Positions 2,183 through 64,000 of a stretch of DNA of 64,000 bases are shown here, piece after piece; position 1 is the stretch's first letter, and the number at the start of each line of letters is the position of its first letter. The translations under genes and the position numbers were made by a program. The DNA is taken from contig CAYSKO010000007.1 of the NCBI GenBank assembly GCA_964431835.1, forward strand, positions 8,997 to 72,996, given 5' to 3'. The notes under the pieces are model-generated. The model did no database searches. It was given only the letters and a program-made list of their open reading frames with translations, and was not told where the DNA came from. This DNA comes from an uncultured Planctomycetia bacterium. GTDB taxonomy: Bacteria > Omnitrophota > Gorgyraeia > 2-02-FULL-51-18.

Positions 2183-3502
2183 GTGAAAAAGGTTTTCCTT
2201 CAAACCTTTGGCTGCCAGATGAACGAGCGCGACTCGGAGGCCGTGACCGGACTTCTTTACGCGCGCGGCTGGACCGGCGTTTCCTCCCCCGAAGAAGCGG
2301 ATCTCCTCCTCTACAACACCTGTTCGATCCGCGACCATGCGGAGCAGAAGGTGTTCGGCCGCATGGGCGGTTTCCGGAAACTCAAAGAAAAGAATCCCAA
2401 GCTCATCATCGGTATCCTCGGCTGCATGGCCCAGGAGCACGGCACGGATTTTTTCCGCCGGAATCCCGGGATCGATCTGGTTTGCGGCACCGGCAACCTC
2501 GCGGACGTTCCCGCGCTCGTCGAGGATATCGAGCGTCAGCGCGGTCCGCGCCTGGCGGTCGACGGCTTGGGCGGCGAATACGGCTTGGACGGAATCGCGT
2601 ACCGCGAGGGCTCGGTGAAGGCACTCGTCACGATCATGACCGGGTGCGACCACCGCTGCACTTACTGCATCGTTCCGTACACGCGCGGAGACGAACGCTC
2701 GCGGCCTTCGAGCGACGTGACGGCCGAGGTCGCGGACCTCGCGGCACGCGGCTTCAAGGACGTCATGCTCCTAGGCCAGAACGTGAACTGCTACGGCAAG
2801 AATCTCGGGGAAGAGGGAATGGATTTCGCCGTTCTCCTGGAGAAGATCCAGACGGCCGCCCCGGGTCTTCCGCGCCTGCGCTTCATCACGAGCCATCCGA
2901 AAGACGCGAGCGACAAGCTTTTCCGCGCGATGCGCGACCTGCCGTCGGTGTGCGAGCATCTTCATCTGCCCGTCCAGTCCGGCGCGAACCCCGTCCTCAA
3001 GCGCATGAAGCGCGAGCACACGGTCGAGTGGTACGTCGAGCGCGTCGAATCCTACCGCGCGCACCTTCCCGAAGGCAGCCTCACGACCGATTTCATCATC
3101 GGTTTCCCGGGCGAAACCGAAAACGATTTTCTGGACACGCTCGCGCTCGTCGAGCGGGCGGAGTTCGACTCTGCGTTCATTTTCCAGTACTCGCCGCGGC
3201 CGGGTACTCCGGCGCTGAAGCTCGCCGACGACGTACCGCAGGAAGAGAAGGGCCGCCGCCACCGCGCGCTCCTGGCCGCGCAGAGGTCCGCGTCGGTCCG
3301 GCGGAACGGCCGTTTCGCGGGACGCACGGTGGAAGTGCTTTTCGAAACGCCTTCGCGCCGCGACGAGGGTCGCTGGGTTGGGCGCTCGCGCGACTACAAG
3401 CGCGTCGTCGCCGCCTCCGCGGTCCCGCTCGAAGGCGAGCTCCGGAGCGTCCGGATCACGGGCATCGCCGACGAGACACTGCTCGGGGAGATCGCTCTTT
3501 GA
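2183..3502 (+). CDS. miaB: tRNA-2-methylthio-N6-dimethylallyladenosine synthase MiaB (radical SAM methylthiotransferase)
   Basis: N-terminal KKVFLQTFGCQMN MTTase motif, CDHRCTYCIVP radical-SAM cysteine triad and a TRAM-like C-terminus. GTG start with SD AAGGA 8 nt upstream. The track ORF from 2060 is an upstream read-through of the same frame. Confidence 0.9.
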   Translation: MKKVFLQTFGCQMNERDSEAVTGLLYARGWTGVSSPEEADLLLYNTCSIRDHAEQKVFGRMGGFRKLKEKNPKLIIGILGCMAQEHGTDFFRRNPGIDLVCGTGNLADVPALVEDIERQRGPRLAVDGLGGEYGLDGIAYREGSVKALVTIMTGCDHRCTYCIVPYTRGDERSRPSSDVTAEVADLAARGFKDVMLLGQNVNCYGKNLGEEGMDFAVLLEKIQTAAPGLPRLRFITSHPKDASDKLFRAMRDLPSVCEHLHLPVQSGANPVLKRMKREHTVEWYVERVESYRAHLPEGSLTTDFIIGFPGETENDFLDTLALVERAEFDSAFIFQYSPRPGTPALKLADDVPQEEKGRRHRALLAAQRSASVRRNGRFAGRTVEVLFETPSRRDEGRWVGRSRDYKRVVAASAVPLEGELRSVRITGIADETLLGEIAL

Positions 3503-4140
3503 AGCGGGGGACGGGCGCGGTGCTGGTTTTCGCGCTTATAGCCGCCTGCGCGCCCGCGCACGCGAATTTTGGCCGCGCGACGACCCGGAAAGAACGCGAA
3601 GCCGCTCTCTCGCCCCGCGGCGCGGCTTCCCGGCTCTACGAGCGCATCCACGAATGTTTCCTGTCGGACGACCACGTTTCTGTCGAGCGGCTCTCCGGCG
3701 AGTATCTGGAGACGCCGCGCCAACCGAAGGCACAGGACGTGAAATTCCTACGTGCGCTCTCTCTCGTCAAGCTCGGCCGCGGAGCCGAAGCGCGCGCCGA
3801 GCTTGAACGCCTCGAATACGGCGCGACGAACCCCGAGAAAAAAGCCCGCGCCGCCGCGGCGATCGGCGACTCGTTCGTGGAAGAGGGCGACCATTCGTCC
3901 GCCTACCGGATTTATCAGGACACGCTCCGCCGCTACCCGTCGTTCTCCGAAGCGCCGTTTCTTCTCGAGCGCCTGGCGGCTTTCGCGCGCGAACTCGGCC
4001 ACGGACGCGAAGCCGATTATTTCGGCGGCCGCTTGTCCGCGGAATTCCCCGGGTGGGCGCCACCGGGCCCTCCGCAGAGCCGTCCTCTCGGCCGCGGCGC
4101 GGTAGAAGAACGACCTCACGACAACGCCGGACGCTCGTGA
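3499..4140 (+). CDS. Secreted hypothetical protein with TPR-like helical repeats (signal peptide MKRGTGAVLVFALIAACAPAHA)
   Basis: TTG start overlapping the miaB stop, with SD GGGAGA. An n-h-c signal peptide ends in AHA. The Ala/Leu-rich helical repeats are TPR-like. An alternative start is GTG 3520. Confidence 0.5.
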   Translation: MKRGTGAVLVFALIAACAPAHANFGRATTRKEREAALSPRGAASRLYERIHECFLSDDHVSVERLSGEYLETPRQPKAQDVKFLRALSLVKLGRGAEARAELERLEYGATNPEKKARAAAAIGDSFVEEGDHSSAYRIYQDTLRRYPSFSEAPFLLERLAAFARELGHGREADYFGGRLSAEFPGWAPPGPPQSRPLGRGAVEERPHDNAGRS

Positions 4141-12666: not shown

Positions 12667-12684
12667 CCGAAAAGGAAGAAGCGA

Positions 12685-12957
12685 ATGCCCACTTACGAAT
12701 ACCGCTGCGAGAAATGCCGCAAGAAGTTCGAGCTCCTCCAGCGTATGTCCGAGCCGCCGGTCAAGAAGTGCCCGCTGTGCGGGGGCGGCAAGGTCGAGCG
12801 CCTGATCGGTGCCGGCGCCGGACTCATCTTCAAGGGCAGCGGCTTTTACATCACCGACTACAAGAAGCCCTCCGCTTCCGACGCGGCCAAAAAGTCCAAG
12901 GACGAAAAACCGAAGGAATCCAAGGAAACGAAGAAGCCTTCGAAATCCAATGACTGA
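12685..12957 (+). CDS. FmdB-family zinc-ribbon protein (putative regulatory protein)
   Basis: N-terminal MPTYEYRCEKC...CPLCGG CxxC pairs and a Lys-rich tail. Confidence 0.8.
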   Translation: MPTYEYRCEKCRKKFELLQRMSEPPVKKCPLCGGGKVERLIGAGAGLIFKGSGFYITDYKKPSASDAAKKSKDEKPKESKETKKPSKSND

Positions 12958-13336
12958 GCGCGCGCGCGCGTGGTGCGCGGTTGTCGTTTGGGGAGCTTTT
13001 ATCTTCGGGGTCTCCTCTTTCCCGCGCCTCCATGTCGCGCCGGCTCCGTGGATGAAGTATCAGCCGGATAAGATCTTCCATTTCCTCGAGTACACGATTT
13101 TCGGGTATTTCTTGACGCGTGCATTTTGGCTGACGTACAATTTCCGCTCGACTCTCGCGCTCGCGCTCGCGACGTTCGCCGCGGGCACCCTGTACAGCGT
13201 GTCGGACGAGTGGCACCAAAAGTTCATACCGGGCCGGCATTCGGACCCGATGGACGTGGCCGCGGACGCGCTGGGCGTCGCTGCCGGAACATACATCCTG
13301 CTCAAGAAGACGAAAGGCTCCGCCCCTCATGCCTGA
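12950..13336 (+). CDS. VanZ-family membrane protein
   Basis: Four hydrophobic segments and the conserved SDEWHQ motif typical of VanZ-like proteins. Confidence 0.7.
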   Translation: MTERARAWCAVVVWGAFIFGVSSFPRLHVAPAPWMKYQPDKIFHFLEYTIFGYFLTRAFWLTYNFRSTLALALATFAAGTLYSVSDEWHQKFIPGRHSDPMDVAADALGVAAGTYILLKKTKGSAPHA

Positions 13337-27219: not shown

Positions 27220-28145
27220 TTACGGGTTCTGGTGGCTTCGTCGGCCGACACCTCGCGGCTTACGCCGCGGCGCAGGGAGCCGACGTTATTGGGACGCGCC
27301 GTCCGGGCATATCTCTCGAGGGAAAAAGCGTCGAGCTAGACCTTACGAACGTGGATTCCTTGCGGCGAGCAGTGAAGGAAGCGGCGCCCGATCTCATATT
27401 TCATTTGGCCGGCGAATCGTCGGTGGCTGCCTCGTGGCTCTCGCCCGAGCGGACGCTCGAGACGAACGTTCTCGGCCTGCAAAGGCTCCTCGAGGCGGTC
27501 CTTACCGAGAAGCCCTCCGCGCGGGTCCTTGTCGCGTGCTCGAGCGACCAGTACGGCCCGGTGGACGAAGAGGATTTACCGATCGACGAAAGCGCCCCGT
27601 TCCGGCCGACGAGCCCCTACGCGCTTTCGAAGTGCGCGCAGGATCTCATAGCGTATCAGTTCCACTACGCGCACGGCCTCCACGTAGTGCGCACACGGAA
27701 CTTTAGCCAGATCGGTCCCGGCCAGGACGCACGGTTCGCGCCCGGCCGCTTCGCACGCGAGACGGCCCGCATCGAGGCGGGTCTTGCGGAACCGGTGATG
27801 AAGACGGGAAATTTGGACGCGATCCGCGATTTCACGGACGTCCGCGATTCAGTGCGCGCTCTCTGGCTCGTGCTCGATTCGGGACGCCCCGGCGAGGCCT
27901 ATAACGTTTGTTCGGGTCTCGGGCGGCGCGTAGGGGACATCGTGGAGCATTTCCGCCTCCGCTCGCGGAAGCCGTTCCGCGTGGAGACGGATCCGGCGCT
28001 CGTGCGGCCGGTCGATGTGCCGGCCGCCTGGGGCGACGGTTCGAAGCTTTCGAGGGAGACGGGCTGGCGGCCCGAGATTTCGTTTGAACGGGCGCTCGAC
28101 GACCTGCTCGAAGACTGGCGAAAAAAAGTAAAGGAAGGCGCATGA
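27207..28145 (+). CDS. NAD-dependent epimerase/dehydratase family protein (GDP-sugar dehydratase/reductase-like)
   Basis: LITGSGGFVG Rossmann motif and the YALSK catalytic pair. TTG start 27207 is preferred; the in-frame ATG 27168 would overlap rfbD by 52 nt. Confidence 0.75.
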   Translation: MRVLITGSGGFVGRHLAAYAAAQGADVIGTRRPGISLEGKSVELDLTNVDSLRRAVKEAAPDLIFHLAGESSVAASWLSPERTLETNVLGLQRLLEAVLTEKPSARVLVACSSDQYGPVDEEDLPIDESAPFRPTSPYALSKCAQDLIAYQFHYAHGLHVVRTRNFSQIGPGQDARFAPGRFARETARIEAGLAEPVMKTGNLDAIRDFTDVRDSVRALWLVLDSGRPGEAYNVCSGLGRRVGDIVEHFRLRSRKPFRVETDPALVRPVDVPAAWGDGSKLSRETGWRPEISFERALDDLLEDWRKKVKEGA

Positions 28146-29458
28146 AGGGCATCGAACCCAAGAGCATCGAATTGAAGATCAAGGACCGCTCCCTCCGCGT
28201 GGGGATCGTCGGCCTCGGATACGTCGGTCTTCCCCTGGCGGTCGCTTTCGCGAAAGCCGGTTTCGGGACCACCGGCGTCGACGTCGACCCCCGTAAAGTC
28301 CGCTCGCTGACCGGCGGTAAATCGTACGTGTTGGACGTGCCGTCGGCCGACGTGAAGGCCCTCGTTCGCTCCCGGAAGCTCCGCGCGACATCCGATTACG
28401 CAGCGCTCGCCACGGTCGACGCCGTGATCATTTGCGTGCCGACGCCGCTTTCGAAGACGAAGGAACCCGATGTCTCGTATATCGTCGACGCGACCAAACG
28501 TATCGCCCAGCGGCTGAAGAAAGGCCAGCTCATTGTGCTCGAGAGCACGACTTATCCGGGCACCACCGAAGAGGTGATGCTCCCGCTTCTCGAGCGCTCG
28601 GGACTTAAAGTGGAGCGAGACTTCTTCCTCGCGTTCTCGCCCGAGCGCGTCGATCCCGGCAACAAATCGTTCGACACGGTGTCGATCCCGAAGGTCGTCG
28701 GCGGAATCGGGCCCGCTTCGACACGCGCCGTGACGGCCCTCTACGCGTCCGTGATCCGCCGCATCGTTCCGGTGTCCTCGGCGAAGACAGCCGAGATGGT
28801 GAAGCTTCTCGAGAATACGTTCCGAAGCGTCAATATCGGGCTCATCAACGAAGTCGCGCTCATGTGCGACCGTCTCGGCATCGACGTCTGGGAAGTGATC
28901 GAGGCCGCAAAGACGAAGCCCTTTGGTTTCATGCCATTCTATCCCGGGCCGGGTCTCGGGGGGCACTGCCTTCCTATTGATCCTCTGTACCTTTCCTGGA
29001 AATCGCGCCTGCACGGCTTCGAGGCCCGGCTCATCGAGCTGGCCTCCGCGGTGAACGAATCGATGCCTCATTACGTGGTCCAGAAGGTGGCGCAGCTTCT
29101 GAACGACCGCCGCGTGCCGCTCAAGAACGCGTCGGTCCTGGTCCTCGGCGTCGCTTACAAGCGGGACGTCGACGATCTGCGTGAATCGCCGGCGCTCGAA
29201 GTGATCGGCGGTCTCGTGAAGGGTGGGGCGCGCGTTTCTTTCGCGGACCCGCACATCGCATCGCTTTCGATGGCCGGAAAGACGCTGAAGGCAAAGCCCC
29301 TCACCGCGTCGCTTCTCGCCGCTCAGGACTGTTCGGTCGTGATCACCGACCACGCGGGATTCGACTACGACCTCGTCGCAAAAAACGCGAAGCTCGTCCT
29401 CGACACCCGGAACGCGATGCGCCGCCATAAAGGCCGCTCGCACGTGCATTTTCTTTAA
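28142..29458 (+). CDS. Nucleotide-sugar dehydrogenase, UDP-N-acetyl-D-glucosamine/mannosamine 6-dehydrogenase type (WbpA/WecC/TviB family)
   Basis: GLGYVGLPLA Rossmann motif, the catalytic GPGLGGHCLPID block and a 438-aa length. Confidence 0.85.
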   Translation: MKGIEPKSIELKIKDRSLRVGIVGLGYVGLPLAVAFAKAGFGTTGVDVDPRKVRSLTGGKSYVLDVPSADVKALVRSRKLRATSDYAALATVDAVIICVPTPLSKTKEPDVSYIVDATKRIAQRLKKGQLIVLESTTYPGTTEEVMLPLLERSGLKVERDFFLAFSPERVDPGNKSFDTVSIPKVVGGIGPASTRAVTALYASVIRRIVPVSSAKTAEMVKLLENTFRSVNIGLINEVALMCDRLGIDVWEVIEAAKTKPFGFMPFYPGPGLGGHCLPIDPLYLSWKSRLHGFEARLIELASAVNESMPHYVVQKVAQLLNDRRVPLKNASVLVLGVAYKRDVDDLRESPALEVIGGLVKGGARVSFADPHIASLSMAGKTLKAKPLTASLLAAQDCSVVITDHAGFDYDLVAKNAKLVLDTRNAMRRHKGRSHVHFL

Positions 29459-29470
29459 TGGATGAAGAAT

Positions 29471-29560
29471 GGAAGGGTGTTTCGTTTATTCGATGCAGCA
29501 GAAACGTGGCATACAAGACAATGTTGTTTCCGCGTAATCGAAGAAACGAAACACCCTTCC
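29471..29560. repeat. Imperfect 24-bp inverted repeat (GGAAGGGTGTTTCGTTTATTCGAT / ATCGAAGAAACGAAACACCCTTCC, 23/24 complementary) separated by 42 bp; an AT-rich seam inside the polysaccharide cluster
   Basis: Arms at 29471-29494 and 29537-29560, read directly. Confidence 0.7.
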
Positions 29561-29561
29561 C

Positions 29562-29593
29562 ATTGAGTCATGAATAAATTGAGTCATGAATAA
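29562..29593. repeat. Perfect tandem duplication of the 16-mer ATTGAGTCATGAATAA, abutting the inverted repeat and containing the candidate start codon of the downstream gene
   Basis: Copies at 29562-29577 and 29578-29593, read directly. Confidence 0.7.
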
Positions 29594-30539
29594 GATGAAA
29601 ACACTCCTTATAACCGGCGGCGCCGGGTTCGTAGGACGGCACGCGATCGACGCGGCCCTTAAAAAAGGGTTCGCCGTCCGCGTGCTCGACAACTTCTCGA
29701 CGAGCCGCCGCGAGGCGCTCGATTCCGTGAAGCAGCGGATTAAGCTCATCGAAGGAGACATCCGCGACCCGAAGATCGCCGCGCGCGCGATGAAGGGCGT
29801 CCATGCCGTCTTTCATCTGGCGGCGATTCGCTCGGTGATGCGCTCGGTCGAGGACCCGTTCCTCGCGCACGAAGTGAACGCCACCGGCACCCTCGTGCTT
29901 CTGGAGGCGGCCCGTGCAGCGGGCGTGAAACACTTCCTTTTCGCTTCCACGAGTGCCGTGTACGGCGACACGCCGGCCCGCCGCCAGAGCGAGGCAGGGC
30001 CGCTCCGCCCGATCTCGCCCTACGGCGCCGCGAAGCTCGCCGCCGAAATGTACGCACGCCACTATTCGCTCGAGAAGGGCCTTCCAACCACCTCGATCCG
30101 CATCTTCAACGTCTACGGTCCACGCCAGAACCCGGAGTCCAAATATTCGCTCGTCGTGCCCGGCCTTCTTTCGAAGATCCTGAAAGGGGAGAGGCCGAAG
30201 ATAGACGGCACCGGAAAACAGTCGCGGGATTTCGTCTACATCGGCGACGTGCTCGAGGCGTTCTTCCGCGCCCTCGGCAACCGGAAATCCCACGGCAAGG
30301 TGTATAATGTGGGCTCTGGCCGGACGCATTCGATCAACGACCTGGCGAGTACCCTGATCCGGCTCGCGGGCTCGCGCCTCAAGCCGGAATACGGACCCCG
30401 CCGCGGGGGAGACCCGGATGTCACCTGCGCCAACGTGCGCGCGATCGGCCGCGAACTGGGCTGGCGGCCGCGAACGGGGCTCGAACGCGGACTCAAGGAA
30501 ACCACCGAATGGGCGATAAGAGAAAAAAGCGCGTTCTGA
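29586..30539 (+). CDS. NAD-dependent nucleotide-sugar epimerase (UDP-Glc/UDP-GlcNAc 4-epimerase family, WbpP-like)
   Basis: ITGGAGFVG motif and the YGAAK catalytic pair. The alternative start ATG 29595 gives MKTLLITGG. Confidence 0.85.
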
Positions 30540-32288: not shown

Positions 32289-32585
32289 ATGAAGAAGATT
32301 CTCGTTTGGACCGCGATCGGCCTGTTTGCGGCCGCCTCGAATGCCGCCGCTGGCGACGCCTGCTGCGGAACGTCCTCGCCCGAAGAAATGAAGCAGTCCG
32401 CCCAGACGGTGGACGACGCCGCCAAAGCGCTTGAAGGCACCAACCCCGAGCTCGCAGCCAAACTCAAAAAGATCGCCGCGCACAAGCGTGAGCACGGTGA
32501 AGGCAAGGCGGAGCACGGTGAAGGCAAGGCGGCGCACGGGCACGGGCAAGAGCATCCCGCCGGCGGCTCGGAGCACCCGGCTTAA
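32289..32585 (+). CDS. Small secreted His-rich protein (signal peptide, CC motif, tandem EHGEGKA repeats), putative metal-binding
   Basis: Strong SD, an Sec-type signal peptide (MKKILVWTAIGLFAAASNAAA), a perfect 21-bp tandem repeat at 32489-32530 and a terminator immediately downstream. Confidence 0.6.
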   Translation: MKKILVWTAIGLFAAASNAAAGDACCGTSSPEEMKQSAQTVDDAAKALEGTNPELAAKLKKIAAHKREHGEGKAEHGEGKAAHGHGQEHPAGGSEHPA

Positions 32586-32612
32586 ACCAAGAAAAAAAGT
32601 CGGTCAGTTGAA

Positions 32613-32658
32613 CGGAGCGGGAGGCCGGTAGGCCGTCCCGCTCCGGTTTCGTTTTTTT
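32613..32658 (+). terminator. Rho-independent terminator (10-bp GC-rich stem CGGAGCGGGA/TCCCGCTCCG, then TTTCGTTTTTTT)
   Basis: Read directly. Confidence 0.75.
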
Positions 32659-32679
32659 CGCGAGAACGGGTTCCTTATA

Positions 32680-39377: not shown

Positions 39378-39381
39378 CGCT

Positions 39382-39615
39382 TTAGTCGTTGTCGTCGGAG
39401 TCGCCGCCGCCGAACCAGCCTTTATTCTCTGGCTTATTCGCCTTTTTCTTCGTGTCGATGAGCTGGCCGTCTTCCATGTCCTTGGCGACGGCGTAGCCGC
39501 CGACGACGCCGCCGGCGATAAGGGCCGCCGCGCAGCCCGGAAGGGAAAGCGCCGAGATCGTGAGCGAAATCATCATGAGAAGCGTGACGAGCGAGCGGAG
39601 GAATGGGATGCGCAC
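39382..39615 (-). CDS. OsmB-like glycine-zipper lipoprotein (signal peptide with lipobox LPGC, then GxxxG zipper AGGVVGGYAVA)
   Basis: GTG start with SD AAGGAG. The lipobox and Gly-zipper 2TM motif are read directly. It is the only minus-strand gene in the first 61 kb. Confidence 0.55.
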   Translation of the reverse strand: MRIPFLRSLVTLLMMISLTISALSLPGCAAALIAGGVVGGYAVAKDMEDGQLIDTKKKANKPENKGWFGGGDSDDND

Positions 39616-39658
39616 GGGGGAGTCTCCTTTCGCCGATTATAGCATAAACCCCTCAATT

Positions 39659-39667
39659 TGATATAAT
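39659..39667 (+). promoter_or_regulatory. Extended -10 element TGaTATAAT placed 8 nt upstream of the gatC ATG (predicted leaderless gatCAB transcript)
   Basis: Read directly. There is no SD before the ATG at 39676. Confidence 0.35.
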
Positions 39668-39675
39668 CACCCCCT

Positions 39676-39966
39676 ATGGCCGACATCGATCTTAAGAACG
39701 TCGCGAAGCTCGCGCGCCTCCACCTCACCGACGACGAAATCCGTCACCTGGAAGGCCAGGTGAAAGGGATACTCGACTTCGTCGAGCAGCTGAAGGAAGT
39801 AAACGTCGAGGGCATCGAGCCTACGACCCACCCGTTCCCGGTCCGGGACGTCTTCCGCGAAGACGAGCCGAAGCCCTCCCTCAAGATCGAAGAGTTCCTG
39901 AAGACGGCTCCCAAGGCCAAAGGCCGCTTCTTCGAGGTCCCGAAGATCATCGAGGATAAATCGTGA
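39676..39966 (+). CDS. gatC: Asp-tRNA(Asn)/Glu-tRNA(Gln) amidotransferase subunit C
   Basis: GatC family N-terminus ([19 protein letters not shown]) and its operon position before gatA/gatB. Confidence 0.9.
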
Positions 39967-57894: not shown

Positions 57895-59433
57895 ATGGAA
57901 ACCCTTTTAATCATCGACTTCGGTTCCCAGTACAACCAGCTCATCGCCCGCCGGGTGCGCGAGTCGAAGGTGTACTGCGAGATCGTTCCGCCCACGATCA
58001 CCGCCGACCAGATCCGCGCCAAAGGGAACGTAAAGGGGATCATCCTTTCCGGCGGCCCGGCGAGCGTGTACTTAAAGAACGCGCCTCAGCTCGACGCGGG
58101 CTATCTCGAGCTCGGCCTTCCGATCTTCGGCATTTGCTACGGCATGCAGGCCCTTTCGCATCTTTTGGGTGGCAAGGTCTGCCGCGCGGAAGAGAAAGAA
58201 TTCGGCCGCGCCGATCTTTTCGTGAAAAGCTCCGGCGGCTCGCTCTTTAAGGGCGTCCCCCGGAAGTCTATTTCCTGGATGAGCCACGGCGATTACGTTT
58301 CGATCATGCCGAAAGGCTTCCAGACCACTGCCTTTACGAAGAACACCAAAGTCGCCGCATTCGAGAACGACGCGAAGAAGATCTACGGCGTCCAGTTCCA
58401 CCCCGAGGTCGCGCACTCCGAGCACGGTAAGAAGGTGATCGAGAACTTCATTAAGGTCTGCGGTTTCAAGAAGTCGTGGACGATGGAGAACTTCATCAAG
58501 GAGAAGACCCGCGAGATCAAGGAGAAGGTCGGGACCGACCACGTGATCCTCGGCCTCTCGGGCGGCGTGGATAGCTCCGTCGCCGCCGCGCTCATGGCGA
58601 AGGCGCTCGGGAAGCAGCTCACCTGCATTTTCGTGAACAACGGCCTGCTAAGGAAGAACGAGGTCGAGTACGTCCGCCAGGCATTCGCCGGCAAATTCAA
58701 TTTCAATCTCGACATCGTGGACGCCGAGAAGCATTTCCTCACCGCGCTGAAAGGCGTCACGGACCCGGAGAAGAAACGCAAGGTCATCGGCCACGAGTTC
58801 ATCTACGCCTTCGACCGCGAAGCGAAGAAAATCAAGAACGCGAAGTGGCTCGGGCAGGGGACGCTGTACCCCGACGTGATCGAGAGTAAGTCCGCCTTCG
58901 GCGGCCCCACCGCCGTCATCAAGAGCCACCACAACGTGGGCGGCCTCCCTGAGAAGATGAAGCTCAAGCTCATCGAGCCCCTCCGCGAGCTTTTCAAAGA
59001 CGAGGTCCGCGAGCTCGGGAAATCGCTCGGCCTCCCGAAAGAGCTCGTATGGCGCCACCCGTTCCCGGGCCCCGGCCTGGCCGTGCGCGTCTTGGGAGAA
59101 GTCACGAAGGAACGCTGCGACATTTTAAGGGAAGCCGACCACCGCTTCCTGGAAGAACTCCACAAGAGCGGCCTCTACACGAAGATCTGGCAAGCCTTCG
59201 CCGTCCTCCTCCCGGTCCGCTCCGTGGGCGTCATGGGCGACGAACGCACCTACGACAACGTCGTCGCCCTCCGCGCCGTCACCAGCGTCGACGGCATGAC
59301 CGCGGACTGGTTCGATATGCCGAAGGAAGTTTTGGGAAAAGTTTCTAACAGAATCATTAACGAAGTCAAAGGCGTGAACCGCGTCTGCTACGACGTGTCT
59401 AGTAAACCCCCGGCGACTATTGAATGGGAATGA
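57895..59433 (+). CDS. guaA: GMP synthase (glutamine-hydrolysing)
   Basis: GATase catalytic Cys (GICYGMQ) and the PP-loop SGGVDSSV. 512 aa. Confidence 0.95.
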
Positions 59434-59475
59434 GAAGGTAAGCATGAACCGCTTAACCGATAGGGTACGACATGG

Positions 59476-59503
59476 AGCTCAGCATCAGCTGAGTATTTTT
59501 TTT
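59476..59503 (+). terminator. Short hairpin (AGCTCAGC-atca-GCTGAGT) plus T9 run directly after guaA; the likely guaA terminator and the left border of the low-GC islet
   Basis: Read directly. Confidence 0.45.
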
Positions 59504-60137
59504 GAGCTTTTTTAAAAAAGAGAAATACCAAGACCCTTCCTTCCCTCCGCTTTTAGATAACGAAATTGAATTTATAAAAAAACTCGACGTAGATTCCGCG
59601 ACTCGATTCATTGAGACGCATGGAAAAAATAAATCCGCTGATGCCAAAGAGCATATCAGGGAAGCAAATCAATTCGAATTCGATATTTGCAATCTTTTAC
59701 TCAAAGGAGCAGGCGCGGCTTTTACATTATATTTTGCTTTGATCGCATATCTGAAGATAACGCCTTCATTTGTACCATTAATTCTTTGGGCTACTTCTGC
59801 GTATTTAGGCATGCTTCATCAGAAGAAATGGTCTCGGAGATTGTTGGGCATTGGTAAAAGAGAAAACTTAATTTCCATGGAAGCGGCACTTCAAATTTTC
59901 AAGCACAACGATGATAGATGTAAGTTCGTGATGCAGGTATTGAAAGAGCAGTTTTTGTACTTAAGCCGCATAACGGCGAAGCAGAGATTAAATCAAGCAG
60001 ACTATAAGTATGTTGTAGTATTCACAGAACTTCCTTTTTTTCTCATAAATTTACAGATTATTTTAGTTATCCTAGGAATTTTTATCGCCGCAACTCAATT
60101 ATTTCCCAACTCAGTAAGCTTAAATGTTGCTAGTTAG
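59502..60137 (+). CDS. Hypothetical membrane protein (two hydrophobic regions flanking a soluble middle segment), low-GC
   Basis: Open frame of 211 codons with an AT-rich composition. The only start is TTG inside the terminator T-run, so the true start may be an internal ATG. No recognisable domain. Confidence 0.35.
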   Translation: MSFFKKEKYQDPSFPPLLDNEIEFIKKLDVDSATRFIETHGKNKSADAKEHIREANQFEFDICNLLLKGAGAAFTLYFALIAYLKITPSFVPLILWATSAYLGMLHQKKWSRRLLGIGKRENLISMEAALQIFKHNDDRCKFVMQVLKEQFLYLSRITAKQRLNQADYKYVVVFTELPFFLINLQIILVILGIFIAATQLFPNSVSLNVAS

Positions 60138-60190
60138 TCGGCCTTAAAACAAAGTCCTGACAACGTCCTTTAAGCAAAAGAAACTGAACG

Positions 60191-60502
60191 ATGAGTGATT
60201 CGTACTCTGTTCTCGGTCTGAAGCCCGGCGCTTCGAAGGATGAGATTCGAGAGGCGTATCGCGATCTCGTGAAGGTTTGGCATCCGGATCGCTTCGCGCA
60301 CGATCCCGTTTTCCAGAAAAAGGCGCAGGAGAATCTCAAACAGATAAACAAGGCGTACGAGGAGCTTTCGAACGGGACGCAGAATCGAGCCGCGTGCGAG
60401 CGGAGCGTCCGCGTGAAAAAGCATCCCCTTCGTCTTCTGCGGGGAGCGCGAGGACTAGCGCCTCAGCCCATGCGTCGAAGCCGCGCGCGAAAGCTTCTGT
60501 GA
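60191..60502 (+). CDS. J-domain (DnaJ-like) protein
   Basis: YSVLGLKPGASKDEIREAYRDLVKVWHPDRF with the HPD motif. The Arg-rich C-terminus may be low-complexity. Confidence 0.7.
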   Translation: MSDSYSVLGLKPGASKDEIREAYRDLVKVWHPDRFAHDPVFQKKAQENLKQINKAYEELSNGTQNRAACERSVRVKKHPLRLLRGARGLAPQPMRRSRARKLL

Positions 60503-60723
60503 TGTCTTCTCAAAAATGCCATTTCGGCGGTTTGGCGCTCATGTGGACACTCTTTGGGCTTTTGGAACTCGGCGCGGTCGGTGTCTATCAAAGCTCGCCG
60601 CCAGCTCCGTCTACGAACGCTGAGGTGGCTCCCTGGACGGAAGTAGATCCGAAGTCGATCCGGCTCGAAGGGCTCGGTCCGATATTGGTTATTTCACGCT
60701 CGGATCAACGAAAGAGAGAGTAA
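60502..60723 (+). CDS. Small single-TM protein translationally coupled to the J-domain gene (TGATG overlap)
   Basis: ATG at 60502 shares the A of the upstream TGA. A hydrophobic helix (HFGGLALMWTLFGLLELGAVGVY) follows. Alternatively it is the frameshifted C-terminus of the J-domain protein. Confidence 0.35.
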   Translation: MSSQKCHFGGLALMWTLFGLLELGAVGVYQSSPPAPSTNAEVAPWTEVDPKSIRLEGLGPILVISRSDQRKRE

Positions 60724-60887
60724 GAAGCGTACAGGGCACTCCCACTAGCATCGTTGGTAACATGTGGTTGTATGGGTTCGATCACGTCTCCTTCGACTCA
60801 AGTGGAAAGGTCGTGGGGTACCGTAATGACTCCGGAAAGCTTAGAGTGCGATGATCGAAGCATCAACGGAGCGAGAAGGCATCTTCC

Positions 60888-60936
60888 CATACCGGACGTC
60901 GTCCCGACCGACCTTTCGGGACGTCGTCCCAAAACC
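60888..60936. repeat. 49-bp direct repeat, copy 1 (CATACCGGACGTCGTCCCGACCGACCTTTCGGGACGTCGTCCCAAAACC), with an internal 7-bp-stem hairpin
   Basis: Identical at 49/49 to the copy at 61536-61584. Confidence 0.85.
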
Positions 60937-61016
60937 CGGGGATACACAACAACTTATAGGAAGTCATCATCCGAACAGACCGGGCGCCGTCTGAGAAGTA
61001 ATTATCGGGGATCAAA

Positions 61017-61496
61017 ATGAAACGACCCATTCCGCTCGTTATGTCCTTCCTCTTGCTTGCTGGCTGCGCCACGATGAGCAGTCTTCCTAAGACTGCAAAC
61101 GACGTCAATTTCGATTCGAAAGAGGGGAAGACGGGCTGGTCCAAATATGAGGAGACGTTCTTCTTCAGGGGTGTGGACAAGCGCACGACGTACCTGGCGG
61201 CAAAGTCCGGGCTTTCGGACGCGGAATTCACCGTGACACAAGCGGATTTCGAGAAGGGATACGCCAAGGGTAAGCACGGCATGACGGCTTACGACTGGAA
61301 CATCGTGGCGGGCGTGTACGTCAAAGAGATAGAGGGTGGCACTCAGGTGAAGATCGTAGTGGAAGGCTCTAAGGACATCGGCTTCATGGGTGACATGACA
61401 GACCAAAGCTGGCCTCAGAAAATTTACAAGGGTATGCGGGACTACGTCCAAGGCGAGTCCTCCATAACGGATCCGAATAAGAAGATCTTTCAATGA
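61017..61496 (+). CDS. Hypothetical lipoprotein (signal peptide MKRPIPLVMSFLLLAGC with lipobox LAGC)
   Basis: Lipobox read directly. 159 aa, bracketed by the 49-bp direct repeats. No recognised domain. Confidence 0.55.
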   Translation: MKRPIPLVMSFLLLAGCATMSSLPKTANDVNFDSKEGKTGWSKYEETFFFRGVDKRTTYLAAKSGLSDAEFTVTQADFEKGYAKGKHGMTAYDWNIVAGVYVKEIEGGTQVKIVVEGSKDIGFMGDMTDQSWPQKIYKGMRDYVQGESSITDPNKKIFQ

Positions 61497-61535
61497 CGAA
61501 TACGGGAAAGACTGTAAATCATCGTCTTGATACTT

Positions 61536-61584
61536 CATACCGGACGTCGTCCCGACCGACCTTTCGGGACGTCGTCCCAAAACC
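61536..61584. repeat. 49-bp direct repeat, copy 2 (identical to 60888-60936)
   Basis: Read directly. Confidence 0.85.
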
Positions 61585-61663
61585 GGATGGATCGGCCCTT
61601 CATTCTGAAAGAGGCGTAAACAATCGCCTTAAATTAACGCTGTTGCCGACTCCGATTCCAGTC

Positions 61664-62332
61664 TCAGAGCGCGTTACTTTTTCCTATATTACAAACGGAG
61701 CAAAGGGTCCTTAGATTTTCAGTCATTGTCGCTCCACCTTTTGACCATGGCTTGATATGGTCAACATGCAAAACAACCGCCGGATCTTTCGCAGGGCTTG
61801 CACCACACATCTTGCAAATACAGTTATCTCGGATCAAAACCATAGCTCTAAGACGCCAATTGATCTTCCTTGGCCACTTTCCATGATTTATTTTAGAATT
61901 TCCGATGTTAGGGGCCACCTCCATCATCTCGGAATTATTCACAAAATCCCCGAATGCTTGCAGAGCCTTGTTCCAGGATCCAAATCGTTTTTCATAAGTG
62001 CCTAGCGCAAATTTTGAAAGACCCGCGGTTTTTTCCATATCTGACCCTACGGGCTGTCTTCCAAGCTTTTGCCAAACATCGGCTAAATTGCCGAACAACG
62101 TCTCTTCCTTGTTATTCGACGTCAGAACAATTCTTAATCCGGCCACCTCTAGCGCTGTATTCCATGCGCCAAATCGTCTAAGAATTGTGGTCTTTCCAAA
62201 TCTGCCCTTTTCATCATAGGCGGCTGCCGTTAAGGTTGTCTGTCCCATGGATTCCGCGACCCTTCGAATGTCGGCCGCCAACTCCTTATTTGGAATATTT
62301 CGCCTTCTAAGGTTAATTTCAAATTTTTTCAT
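61664..62332 (-). CDS. HNH endonuclease with two N-terminal homing-endonuclease-associated repeats
   Basis: HNH motif (HVDHIKPWSKGG...NLRTLCSVCN) and CxxC pairs. Two RFG(S/A)WN(K/T)AL repeat units are typical of HNH-associated repeats. Confidence 0.8.
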   Translation of the reverse strand: MKKFEINLRRRNIPNKELAADIRRVAESMGQTTLTAAAYDEKGRFGKTTILRRFGAWNTALEVAGLRIVLTSNNKEETLFGNLADVWQKLGRQPVGSDMEKTAGLSKFALGTYEKRFGSWNKALQAFGDFVNNSEMMEVAPNIGNSKINHGKWPRKINWRLRAMVLIRDNCICKMCGASPAKDPAVVLHVDHIKPWSKGGATMTENLRTLCSVCNIGKSNAL

Positions 62333-62336
62333 ACGC

Positions 62337-62792
62337 TCAATCCAAAAATGGCTCTATCCATTTTCTAAATAACTTTAACGCATCCGCCGGCACCACAATC
62401 GGGAAATCAACAAGCGCGTCCACGCCATGCGCCATGAAGTCGCGCGTGTTCCAGGTGACAAATGCGGATACTTTTGCCAAATGCGCCGAGCAAAGGATGG
62501 AGGCATCTCCCTTATCTAATTTGTGTAGAAATCGTTTTGCTTGAGTAGCCGTGGGTTCGGGTGCGATTTCCGGAGCGAGGGCTTTTAAAAGTTCGCGGCT
62601 TTTCTCAACCCGAATAGGAAACTTTTTGGATAAGACGCGGTCTATTTCTATAATAACCTCTTCCGAGACAACCATACTGATCGCGCCACCTTCTACGAGA
62701 CGGATAAGCTCTCCCGCCGCACCTTCCGGAGAAAGCAAAGCCGCTATGTAGGTGCTTGTATCAAAGAAGATGCGGTATCTCGGTATGGCCAT
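62337..62792 (-). CDS. vapC: PIN-domain toxin (VapC-like ribonuclease)
   Basis: N-terminal IFFDTS acidic motif and PIN fold conserved acidic residues. It lies immediately downstream of an AbrB-type antitoxin. Confidence 0.8.
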   Translation of the reverse strand: MAIPRYRIFFDTSTYIAALLSPEGAAGELIRLVEGGAISMVVSEEVIIEIDRVLSKKFPIRVEKSRELLKALAPEIAPEPTATQAKRFLHKLDKGDASILCSAHLAKVSAFVTWNTRDFMAHGVDALVDFPIVVPADALKLFRKWIEPFLD

Positions 62793-63038
62793 TTATGAAC
62801 TTTTGCTGTGGCGAATCTTTTTCAGATCCTTTAAAAGCTCATCCAGCGTGATACCTTTCTCTTTGGATTCTTTCACAAACCCCGCTGATGTAGTTTTAAA
62901 TGTAGAGAGCCCTGGGGTAATCAAAATCCCATTTCCCACTTTGGCTACGGACAAAACAGAGTCCTTCGAAAGATGAAGTGACTCCCTGATGCCTGATGGG
63001 ATCGTCACCTGTCCTTTTTCCCTCATTTTGGTTACCAT
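62793..63038 (-). CDS. vapB: AbrB/MazE/SpoVT-type antitoxin (VapB-like)
   Basis: Swapped-hairpin motif (KGQVTIPSGIRESLHL). ATG with SD GGAG, and its stop abuts the vapC start. The track ORF extends further upstream, but the 81-aa form fits the family. Confidence 0.75.
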   Translation of the reverse strand: MVTKMREKGQVTIPSGIRESLHLSKDSVLSVAKVGNGILITPGLSTFKTTSAGFVKESKEKGITLDELLKDLKKIRHSKSS

Positions 63039-63080
63039 TCTTCTTCTCCTATTTTCATACTGATTCCTACTTTCTAACAA

Positions 63081-63109
63081 AGTGTACCACAGATAGGGGT
63101 GGAATTCAA
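63081..63109 (-). promoter_or_regulatory. Candidate promoter for vapB-vapC-HNH on the minus strand: TTGAAT-17 nt-TACACT
   Basis: Reverse complement read directly. It lies about 45 nt upstream of the vapB ATG. Confidence 0.3.
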
Positions 63110-63458
63110 ATAGCAAACCCCTCTGTGCCAATGTGATCGCAAAAGCGGAGGCGTTACTCCCCGTGACACCCTATTTGCAAAACCGGGCCGCGTCGTTCAA
63201 CATAGGAGCTCTGGCGACCCCAGCCGTGCGCCTCTGCGCACGGCACTCCGGAGGCGGCTGTATAAGGGGTCAAGTCTTTCCCTGACTGCATCTGACGCGT
63301 ATCTATCGCAACGCCGTCGAATATCCGAATCCCATGCGACAAGCTTCTTGAAACGAAAGCAGCTTGAGACGATGGTCCTGTAGGACCCCATAAAATTACT
63401 TGTAGGGCCGATGGTGCAAATAATCTTTGAGTTTATTGTTTGTTTCACTGGACGCGCA

Positions 63459-64000
63459 TCAAATAAATATTTTTATTTTATGTTTTCTAGATCGCAACGC
63501 CATAAAAAAACTATAAGCCAAAGTTAAAATAGTTACAGGCAAAACAAATAATAGCGTGGTTCGACCGAATATCGGCAATAGATCGTGGGCTTGAGCGTTC
63601 AGGATCAAATAGATGATATAGAAAAAATAGTAGGCTAAAAAAATAAACCCTTCCCAGCGTGCAATCAGCCGCCCAGTTAAAAATATCGGCAAGCAAGCAA
63701 ACGCGACCGCGATCATGAACGGTAGATCAAAACCGATGAGGGATCGCGCGACGGGGACAGATCCAGCTCCGGACAACAGACCTGTCAGGCCTCCGACACC
63801 TAAAATATTGAATATGTTGCTACCGATGACATTCCCGATTGCAATATCCTTTTCTCCTTTAAGCGTTGCGACGACTGACGTGAAGATCTCCGGAAACGCT
63901 GTCCCTGCCGCGATGATCGTCAGCGAGATCACTAGATCGCTAACCCCGTACGCCTTAGCAATGGCTACAGCTCCCAATATCAGTCTATTGGACCCGAAAA
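63459..64000 (-). CDS. CaCA-family cation/calcium antiporter (YrbG-like), C-terminal half; the gene continues beyond the window end
   Basis: Alpha-2 repeat motif (GNVIGSNIFNIL) and multiple TM helices. AT-rich composition unlike the core genome. Confidence 0.7.
   Translation of the reverse strand, partial: FGSNRLILGAVAIAKAYGVSDLVISLTIIAAGTAFPEIFTSVVATLKGEKDIAIGNVIGSNIFNILGVGGLTGLLSGAGSVPVARSLIGFDLPFMIAVAFACLPIFLTGRLIARWEGFIFLAYYFFYIIYLILNAQAHDLLPIFGRTTLLFVLPVTILTLAYSFFMALRSRKHKIKIFI

Follow-up and report, generated by a model that had tools for sequence, protein, structure and literature searches.

Prokaryotic MITEs have been described as non-coding, AT-rich sequences of less than 500 bp that occupy intergenic positions, carry inverted repeats and form a stable stem-loop in the transcript (PMC10969869). 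The Correia elements, or NEMIS, are MITEs of Neisseria of about 100–150 bp with TIRs of about 25 bp; they lie in intergenic regions within transcription units, give a long hairpin in the transcript and are present in many copies. TA target duplications accompany them, and they carry IHF sites and end in promoter-like sequences. Cleavage of Correia elements by RNase III at the paired TIRs has been documented (PMC10969869; PMC2649163). ERIC sequences near gene ends can alter mRNA levels, with RNase E featuring in Yersinia (PMC10969869). They are imperfect palindromes, about 127 bp long, that lie between genes in transcribed regions, are found in 30–700 copies per genome and share a conserved consensus. 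REP and BIME sequences are intercistronic operon hairpins that are able to stabilise the 3′ ends of mRNAs. REP sequences are short (about 20–40 nt), GC-rich and highly repeated. Extragenic palindromes of the REP and BIME type are among the subjects of a review (PMC3184786).

The palindrome considered here lies between two genes on the forward strand of a 64-kb stretch of DNA, which was analysed as a whole and is referred to as the window. The upstream gene, deh (28142–29458, with the stop codon TAA at 29456–29458), encodes a nucleotide-sugar dehydrogenase of 438 amino acids with the N, central and C domains of Pfam UDPG_MGDP_dh. Its labelling as a UDP-GlcNAc dehydrogenase in an earlier note on this DNA is not established, because the only NCBIfam model that the protein passes is the generic nucleotide-sugar dehydrogenase TIGR03026; the best named matches, to UDP-ManNAc dehydrogenase and TviB, do not reach the respective cut-offs. 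The downstream gene, epi, encodes a member of the SDR epimerase/dehydratase family (Pfam Epimerase/GDP_Man_Dehyd), and its longest open reading frame covers 29586–30539 and 317 amino acids. Besides the ATG at 29586 (M1), which opens this frame, there is an ATG 9 nt further on at 29595 (M4), from which the protein would read MKTLLITGG. As 9 of 29 aligned homologues begin exactly at the M4 position (MK..L[VI]TGG), ATG 29595 is no worse a candidate for the start than ATG 29586. Nearly all genes of the window are on the forward strand, and neighbours within the cluster overlap or abut.

The inverted repeat, as the earlier note had it, is made up of two 24-nt arms that are complementary at 23 of 24 positions and flank a 42-nt spacer, and its coordinates and sequences were confirmed. 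The left arm (GGAAGGGTGTTTCGTTTATTCGAT) is at 29471–29494, the spacer at 29495–29536 and the right arm at 29537–29560, all on the forward strand, and the sole mismatch between the arms places A29488 opposite G29543. Pairing runs inward from the left arm to 29505, with the outer parts of the spacer (29495–29505 and 29526–29536) pairing imperfectly, and the repeat finder returned the extended pairing as 35 nt at 86% complementarity. In the MFE structure, the centre of the spacer folds into a small apical stem-loop. The 90-nt hairpin unit has a GC content of 46%, and GTTTC/GAAAC motifs recur in its arms and spacer. It is the top-ranked inverted repeat of the window, and one of only 7 whose arms reach 20 nt or more in the 543 kb formed by the window and the related loci. 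Neither the arm pair nor the pair of 16-mers that follows it (see below) occurred in dinucleotide shuffles of the window. The predicted RNA fold of 29440–29620 has an energy of -60.8 kcal/mol against -36.9 +/- 3.6 kcal/mol for dinucleotide shuffles, corresponding to z = -6.65. None of the Rfam 15 covariance models matched the hairpin at its gathering threshold. The best sub-threshold matches were plant miRNA precursors, with 16–21 bits against thresholds of 100–245, and this likeness was set aside as a generic resemblance between long hairpins.

The same deh–epi pair was found in 25 related loci from MAGs assigned to Omnitrophota or labelled ‘Planctomycetia’, and the length of the junction was measured in each as the distance between the deh stop codon and the site that aligns with M4 of the window epimerase. 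In 23 of the 25 loci this distance is between -5 and +26 nt, typically as an ATGA overlap or a stop-N-ATG arrangement, versus 136 nt in the window and 120 nt in L003, a near-identical contig described below. The hairpin block is therefore a lineage-specific insertion. It spans 29459–29593 on the forward strand, with boundaries that are uncertain by a few nucleotides, and measures 135 nt in the window and 119 nt in L003. The two remaining loci, L020 and L025, have junctions of 76–80 nt, with spacers that are unrelated to that of the window; in L020, the junction has expanded independently with a different, terminator-like palindrome. Intermediate forms of the block were not seen at the junctions of any of the 25 loci. 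The tight junction is thus the ancestral state, and from the geometry of stop and start codons in these relatives, deh and epi are probably translationally coupled there. Even the closest species in which the site is empty have epimerases that are only 58–68% identical to that of the window.

The notion that the junction is a mosaic seam of the kind found in O-antigen and capsule clusters finds no footing in these comparisons. The gene order SDR–deh–epi–epi2 is conserved in the 25 related loci, and deh and epi are inherited together across the phylum. Syntenic deh orthologues are 49–68% identical across the 25 loci, and in the closer relatives the identities are similar on the two sides of the junction, with 62–68% for deh and 58–68% for the epimerase. 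If copies that are identical or 99% identical are set aside, the closest homologues of the epimerase are only 68% identical and come from Candidatus Omnitrophota MAGs, a few of which are labelled Planctomycetia or Eisenbacteria. GC content is level across the deh–epi junction.

As a reading of the whole locus, we consider it reasonably probable that a solitary palindromic block of about 111–119 bp, with the 90-bp hairpin unit as its core, was inserted in this lineage only, most likely as a non-autonomous mobile element or a relic of one, that it is co-transcribed with the operon and has its effect, if any, at the RNA level, and that a 16-bp duplication was added later by slippage. In size (119 or 135 nt), intergenic position, stem-loop stability and AT-richness the block agrees with the description of MITEs, and it has no credible coding capacity. 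The AT-rich character noted earlier for this seam is real, at 42% GC in a window of 61%, but not special, as the other short intergenic spacers of the window have 39–47% GC. The empty site expected for a mobile element is likewise seen in 23 of 25 related loci, these being species with at most 68% epimerase identity and not strains. MITEs have terminal inverted repeats of about 4–30 bp at their ends; the 24-bp arms seen here lie 4–12 nt (left) and 14–17 nt (right) inside either inferred insertion boundary, and may thus be subterminal. Two candidate target-site duplications flank the block, GATGAA at 29461–29466 and 29594–29599 on the forward strand, and TAA at 29456–29458 and 29591–29593. Deletion of the block between the GATGAA copies would leave TAAtggATGAAAACA, which is much like the junction of one relative, L011 (TAAtgATGAAAAAA). 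However, a word of at least 6 nt is shared in 13% of shuffled flanks (P about 0.13), and neither GATGAA nor TAA can for this reason be taken as evidence of target duplication. The start of the arm, GGAAGG, may resemble the ends of IS5-family elements; this was given no weight, since GAAT and CATT, the flanking 4-nt words, do not form a direct repeat. Integron attC sites are defined by RYYYAAC/GTTRRRY core sites, and as read from the sequence no such sites are present at the ends of the block; an attC reading was rejected.

The defining property of MITEs, a family of copies dispersed in the host or in related genomes, was not found in the data searched. Low-stringency searches with the hairpin unit and its arms (blastn-short and nhmmer) against the window and 83 related loci returned self matches only. 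The gapped two-arm pattern gave 0 matches in 185,579 GTDB species-representative genomes and 0 in JGI metagenome contigs, both being collections from which the source contig itself is absent. Single-arm words gave 3 matches in JGI metagenomes (20-mer) and 5 in IMG/VR (17-mer); these are partnerless, lie in unrelated contexts and differ in GC content, and were rejected as chance matches. The hairpin block had no blastn match among plasmids and phages, and six-frame peptides of the block had none at E <= 10 among 5.8 billion proteins, a search with low sensitivity for intergenic copies. Nor does the window hold a cognate IS, as judged by transposase genes, of which none lies near the hairpin, and by arm matches. 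All these searches concern the window, the related loci and the databases named, and the host genome beyond the 64-kb window lies outside them. Because no collection searched contains a second copy of the arm, membership of a MITE family is unproven, and we call the element MITE-like, with regard to its shape and its behaviour, without classing it as a member. The earlier note had named, as findings that would speak against a MITE-like element, the absence of further arm copies together with an identical junction in all relatives: further copies are indeed absent from the data searched, but the junction is not identical in the relatives.

Compared with Correia elements, the block has a similar length, similarly long inverted repeats, an intergenic location in what appears to be a transcription unit and a long hairpin at the RNA level, but it was found in a single copy, is not similar in sequence, and lacks both a significant target duplication and a promoter-like site. 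A resemblance to ERIC sequences can be seen in the imperfect palindrome and its length; here too the sequence is unrelated, and the block is a singleton in the data searched. REP sequences are further removed, since the hairpin unit, with 90 nt, 46% GC and a single copy in our search, is not a short GC-rich multicopy palindrome. Palindromic intergenic inserts are a known kind of sequence, of which the present example is so far solitary, and the locus does not represent a new kind of system.

The most likely course of events, drawn in part by analogy with these elements, is the following. The palindromic block entered the deh–epi junction, where stop and start codons normally overlap or are a few bases apart, and would be co-transcribed with the operon, the mRNA folding into an irregular hairpin of about 35 base pairs. 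As for Correia and ERIC sequences, the intercistronic stem might then serve as a substrate for RNase III-type cleavage or as a barrier to exonucleases, and might in this way uncouple the two halves of the operon. Transcription termination at the hairpin is not expected. A scan of both strands found no terminator, and since the stem is followed by CATTGAGTC and not by a T-tract, the hairpin is not a classical terminator. A genuine terminator of this organism, with a GC stem and a T-run, is present at about 32612–32660, and a nearby gene uses an AAGGAG Shine–Dalgarno sequence; the epimerase start has neither feature. The earlier note had asked whether the structure sequesters the start region. 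It does not: in the folds predicted for either allele, the hairpin is self-contained and the start region lies outside the stem, with an unpaired probability of about 0.4–0.56.

Two small open reading frames cross the insert on the forward strand. One, of 39 codons (29458–29577), starts with an ATG that overlaps the deh stop codon as TAATG, and in the one-copy allele of L003 its TAA lies 1 nt before ATG M4. The other, of 34 codons (29462–29566), is in the deh frame and ends with a TGA 3 nt before the next ATG, which is M1 in the one-copy allele and the ATG at 29570 in the two-copy allele. Translation of the epimerase could then depend on re-initiation after these short frames, which end 1–3 nt from its starts, and by analogy they could relay ribosomes by termination–re-initiation, keeping a coupling that the insertion would otherwise break. 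Such a relay is only suggestive, because chance alone leaves the frame across the insert open in 12% of shuffled sequences.

The stability of the stem might also be accounted for without a mobile element, if the hairpin had evolved locally as a selected intercistronic RNA element, which might direct processing, stabilise the mRNA or act as an attenuator, with selection keeping its arms near-perfect. The arms are still paired at 23 of 24 positions in a very stable structure, and a dedicated element would be expected to be a singleton, as this one is. The different terminator-like palindrome gained independently by L020 also indicates that this junction can acquire regulatory spacers. However, a near-perfect duplex of 24 bp is equally predicted for a palindrome that is simply young, and the hairpin is confined to one species-level lineage, where there is no covariation or conservation that would show selection. 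With no Rfam match and no intermediates in the relatives to add to this, we regard a local, selected origin as unlikely, if still deserving of attention, and favour the inserted and probably mobile block.

Directly downstream of the right arm, ATTGAGTCATGAATAA is repeated in tandem, with exactly 2.0 perfect copies at 29562–29577 and 29578–29593 on the forward strand. This confirms the duplication reported earlier, and also the observation that the ATG at 29586, with which the longest epimerase frame opens, falls within copy 2, ATG 29595 following 9 nt later. There are thus ATG codons at 29570, 29586 and 29595, and the 16-mer copies do duplicate a candidate translation-initiation region, as had been proposed. 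The number of copies varies in the population. The 90%-identity cluster of the epimerase holds a second protein, P0121, which is identical at 316 of 317 positions and is encoded on L003, a contig from a third run and another sample. In L003, the hairpin and its flanks are identical to those of the window, and a single 16-mer is present, the alignment showing a clean 16-nt gap that is placed at copy 1. Besides this 16-nt indel, the 1982 nt compared contain a single internal SNP, at 30432, and a mismatched base at the very start of the contig. Two copies of the 16-mer are present in L001 and L002, two further assemblies of the region, as in the window. As only one 16-mer accompanies the hairpin in the near-identical L003, the duplication must be a recent indel at the population level, and the two-copy state is, on the strength of this comparison, a very recent change in a near-identical background that may have happened more than once. 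The one- and two-copy alleles cannot be polarised, because every other species lacks the block altogether; that the two copies are perfectly identical speaks for a recent gain. Most simply, the duplication would have arisen at the 3′ edge of the hairpin by replication slippage, to which the neighbouring stem may have contributed, and it is still polymorphic. Look-ups for further contigs with either allele by way of the neighbouring genes, with the start coordinates used here, did not bring up any recorded product.

The epimerase reading frame is in frame and intact in both alleles, and the differences that the duplication makes concern the sequence ahead of it. In the two-copy allele, the stop of the 39-codon frame is shifted to 8 nt upstream of M1, and a 7-codon upstream frame, MNKLSHE*, is created at 29570–29593 on the forward strand, with its TAA (29591–29593) 1 nt before ATG 29595. 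The duplication also allows two palindromic TCATGA hexamers to pair in a weak 6-bp TCATGA/TCATGA stem over ATG 29586, the unpaired probability of which falls to 0.04–0.12 in the predicted fold with this pairing. From these predictions, the effect of the duplication should be at most a modest retuning of initiation, and not an on/off switch. As in contingency loci and other short tandem indels, the copy number of a unit (1 versus 2) differs between near-identical strains, and the 16-mer is situated at the translation-initiation region of genes of surface-polysaccharide type. Contingency loci differ in that here the unit is 16 nt long and present in only one or two copies, the reading frame is maintained both ways, and no on/off logic is evident. 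It can nevertheless be imagined that the hairpin promotes a reversible change in 16-mer copy number, so that a contingency locus has been built from a domesticated palindromic insert. The one-copy allele would then favour tight re-initiation from the short frames ending 1–3 nt from the epimerase starts, and the two-copy allele would divert ribosomes through the 7-codon frame and bury ATG 29586 in the TCATGA/TCATGA stem; if this were true, subpopulations would differ in how strongly they express the sugar-modifying enzymes and the glycosyltransferase encoded downstream. We find such a switch doubtful and would give it little chance.

The block and the duplication are both real, and are products of ordinary genome microevolution, with a slippage-type indel caught while polymorphic. 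If an inserted palindrome followed by slippage is the right reading, the locus provides a clean natural example, in an uncultured phylum, of a solitary palindromic insert that splits a translationally coupled pair in a conserved operon, and of a 16-bp duplication that followed as a very recent mutation and is still segregating in the population. The junction is no recombination seam of the polysaccharide cluster. The three natural states, i.e., the empty junction of the relatives and the insert followed by either one or two copies of the 16-mer, make the question of operon expression directly testable.

A role of the inverted repeat at the DNA level, as a protein-binding palindrome (an operator or a site for a nucleoid protein) that might also hold a promoter serving the genes downstream, would suit the long symmetric sequence with its recurring GTTTC/GAAAC motifs and the AT-rich spacer upstream of a gene. 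Arms of 24 bp that are 42 bp apart are unlike known operators, however, and the promoter scan of the hairpin found no sigma-70-like or other promoter-like site. No regulator gene adjoins the hairpin, and the site is missing from all relatives that share the operon, which makes this role decidedly improbable.

A genuine small protein encoded in the spacer, be it the 39-residue product of 29458–29577 or the 34-residue product of 29462–29566, with the hairpin as an incidental feature, is very unlikely. The placement of both frames is suggestive, as they begin at or beside the deh stop codon and, in the one-copy allele, end 1–3 nt from an epimerase start, but such a frame was also open in 12% of shuffles. 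GC3 is 0.37–0.42 in the two frames (0.42 in that of 39 codons) versus about 0.8 in the genes of the window; gene callers leave both uncalled, and their products have no family match and no homologue among 5.8 billion proteins. The two frames are probably not genes.

The 16-bp repeat abuts a unit with TIR-like arms, and the earlier note had for that reason considered it as a footprint of transposition or excision, i.e., a target-site duplication or the trace left by a departed element. The repeat is found on one side of the unit only, and L003 retains the hairpin with one 16-mer, which means that the number of repeats varies independently of the element. A target-site duplication of 16 bp would also be unusually long, and a footprint of this kind can hardly be the explanation.

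Palindromes and short repeats from a metagenome can be mis-assembled, but an assembly artefact is scarcely credible as the source of the hairpin or the duplication, because L001 and L002, independent Logan assemblies from other sequencing runs, are identical to the window base for base over 6.3 and 2.1 kb, duplication included, so that three independent assemblies agree, while the 32-bp two-copy repeat should contain no repeated 31-mer that could collapse and the one-copy contig carries its own linked SNP at 30432.

The window's hairpin, formed by 24-nt inverted-repeat arms (29471–29494 and 29537–29560) at the junction between the nucleotide-sugar dehydrogenase and SDR epimerase genes, gives only sub-threshold Rfam matches (29468–29564, minus strand; 16–21 bits), all to the plant miRNA precursor families MIR807, MIR2646 and mir-9449. 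We reject homology to these precursors, and regard scores at this level as a generic resemblance among long hairpins. Further long inverted repeats with arms of 20–29 nt are present in two related or fetched loci, L007 (3339–3411 and 3462–3607) and L069 (3923–4088), and show no sequence relationship to the window's hairpin.

A block of four genes, in which an SDR gene precedes the nucleotide-sugar dehydrogenase and two SDR epimerase genes, keeps its order in 25 loci (L004–L029) from across Omnitrophota MAGs and from several MAGs labelled "uncultured Planctomycetia"; stop and start codons within the block mostly overlap. The dehydrogenase–epimerase junction has been enlarged independently in two Omnitrophota MAGs besides the window. 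The L020 junction (2925–3000) holds a palindrome of 15 bp without mismatches (ATGTAGGGCACCCTT/AAGGGTGCCCTACAT), after which come a T-run and GGAG; that of L025 (2921–3000) holds repeats of the AACGAAAAACGA type.

Elsewhere in the window, a crude GC3-based map of plus-strand genes leaves three gaps of 550–660 nt with genome-like GC (0.59–0.67), at 3503–4052, 12667–13328 and 39378–39962. These may be genes missed by the map or structured RNAs; none of the three has an Rfam match at the gathering threshold. A small plus-strand ORF (32290–32583), preceded at 9 nt by the Shine-Dalgarno sequence AAGGAG, encodes a His/Gly-rich, signal-peptide-like product (MKKILVWTAIGLFAAASNAAAGDACCG...), and includes an in-frame tandem repeat of a 21-nt unit (32490–32539) that specifies 2.4 copies of EHGEGKA. 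The product is possibly a secreted metal-binding peptide. Downstream of the ORF lies a classical terminator with a GC-stem and T-tract (approximately 32612–32660).

Directly 3' of guaA (57895–59433), the GC content falls from about 61% to 47–51% (59434–64000). This region carries an HNH endonuclease gene with homing-endonuclease repeats (61664–62332) and a PIN/MazE-like toxin–antitoxin pair (62337–63131), both on the minus strand, as well as several family-less ORFs. The region is probably an island gained horizontally.
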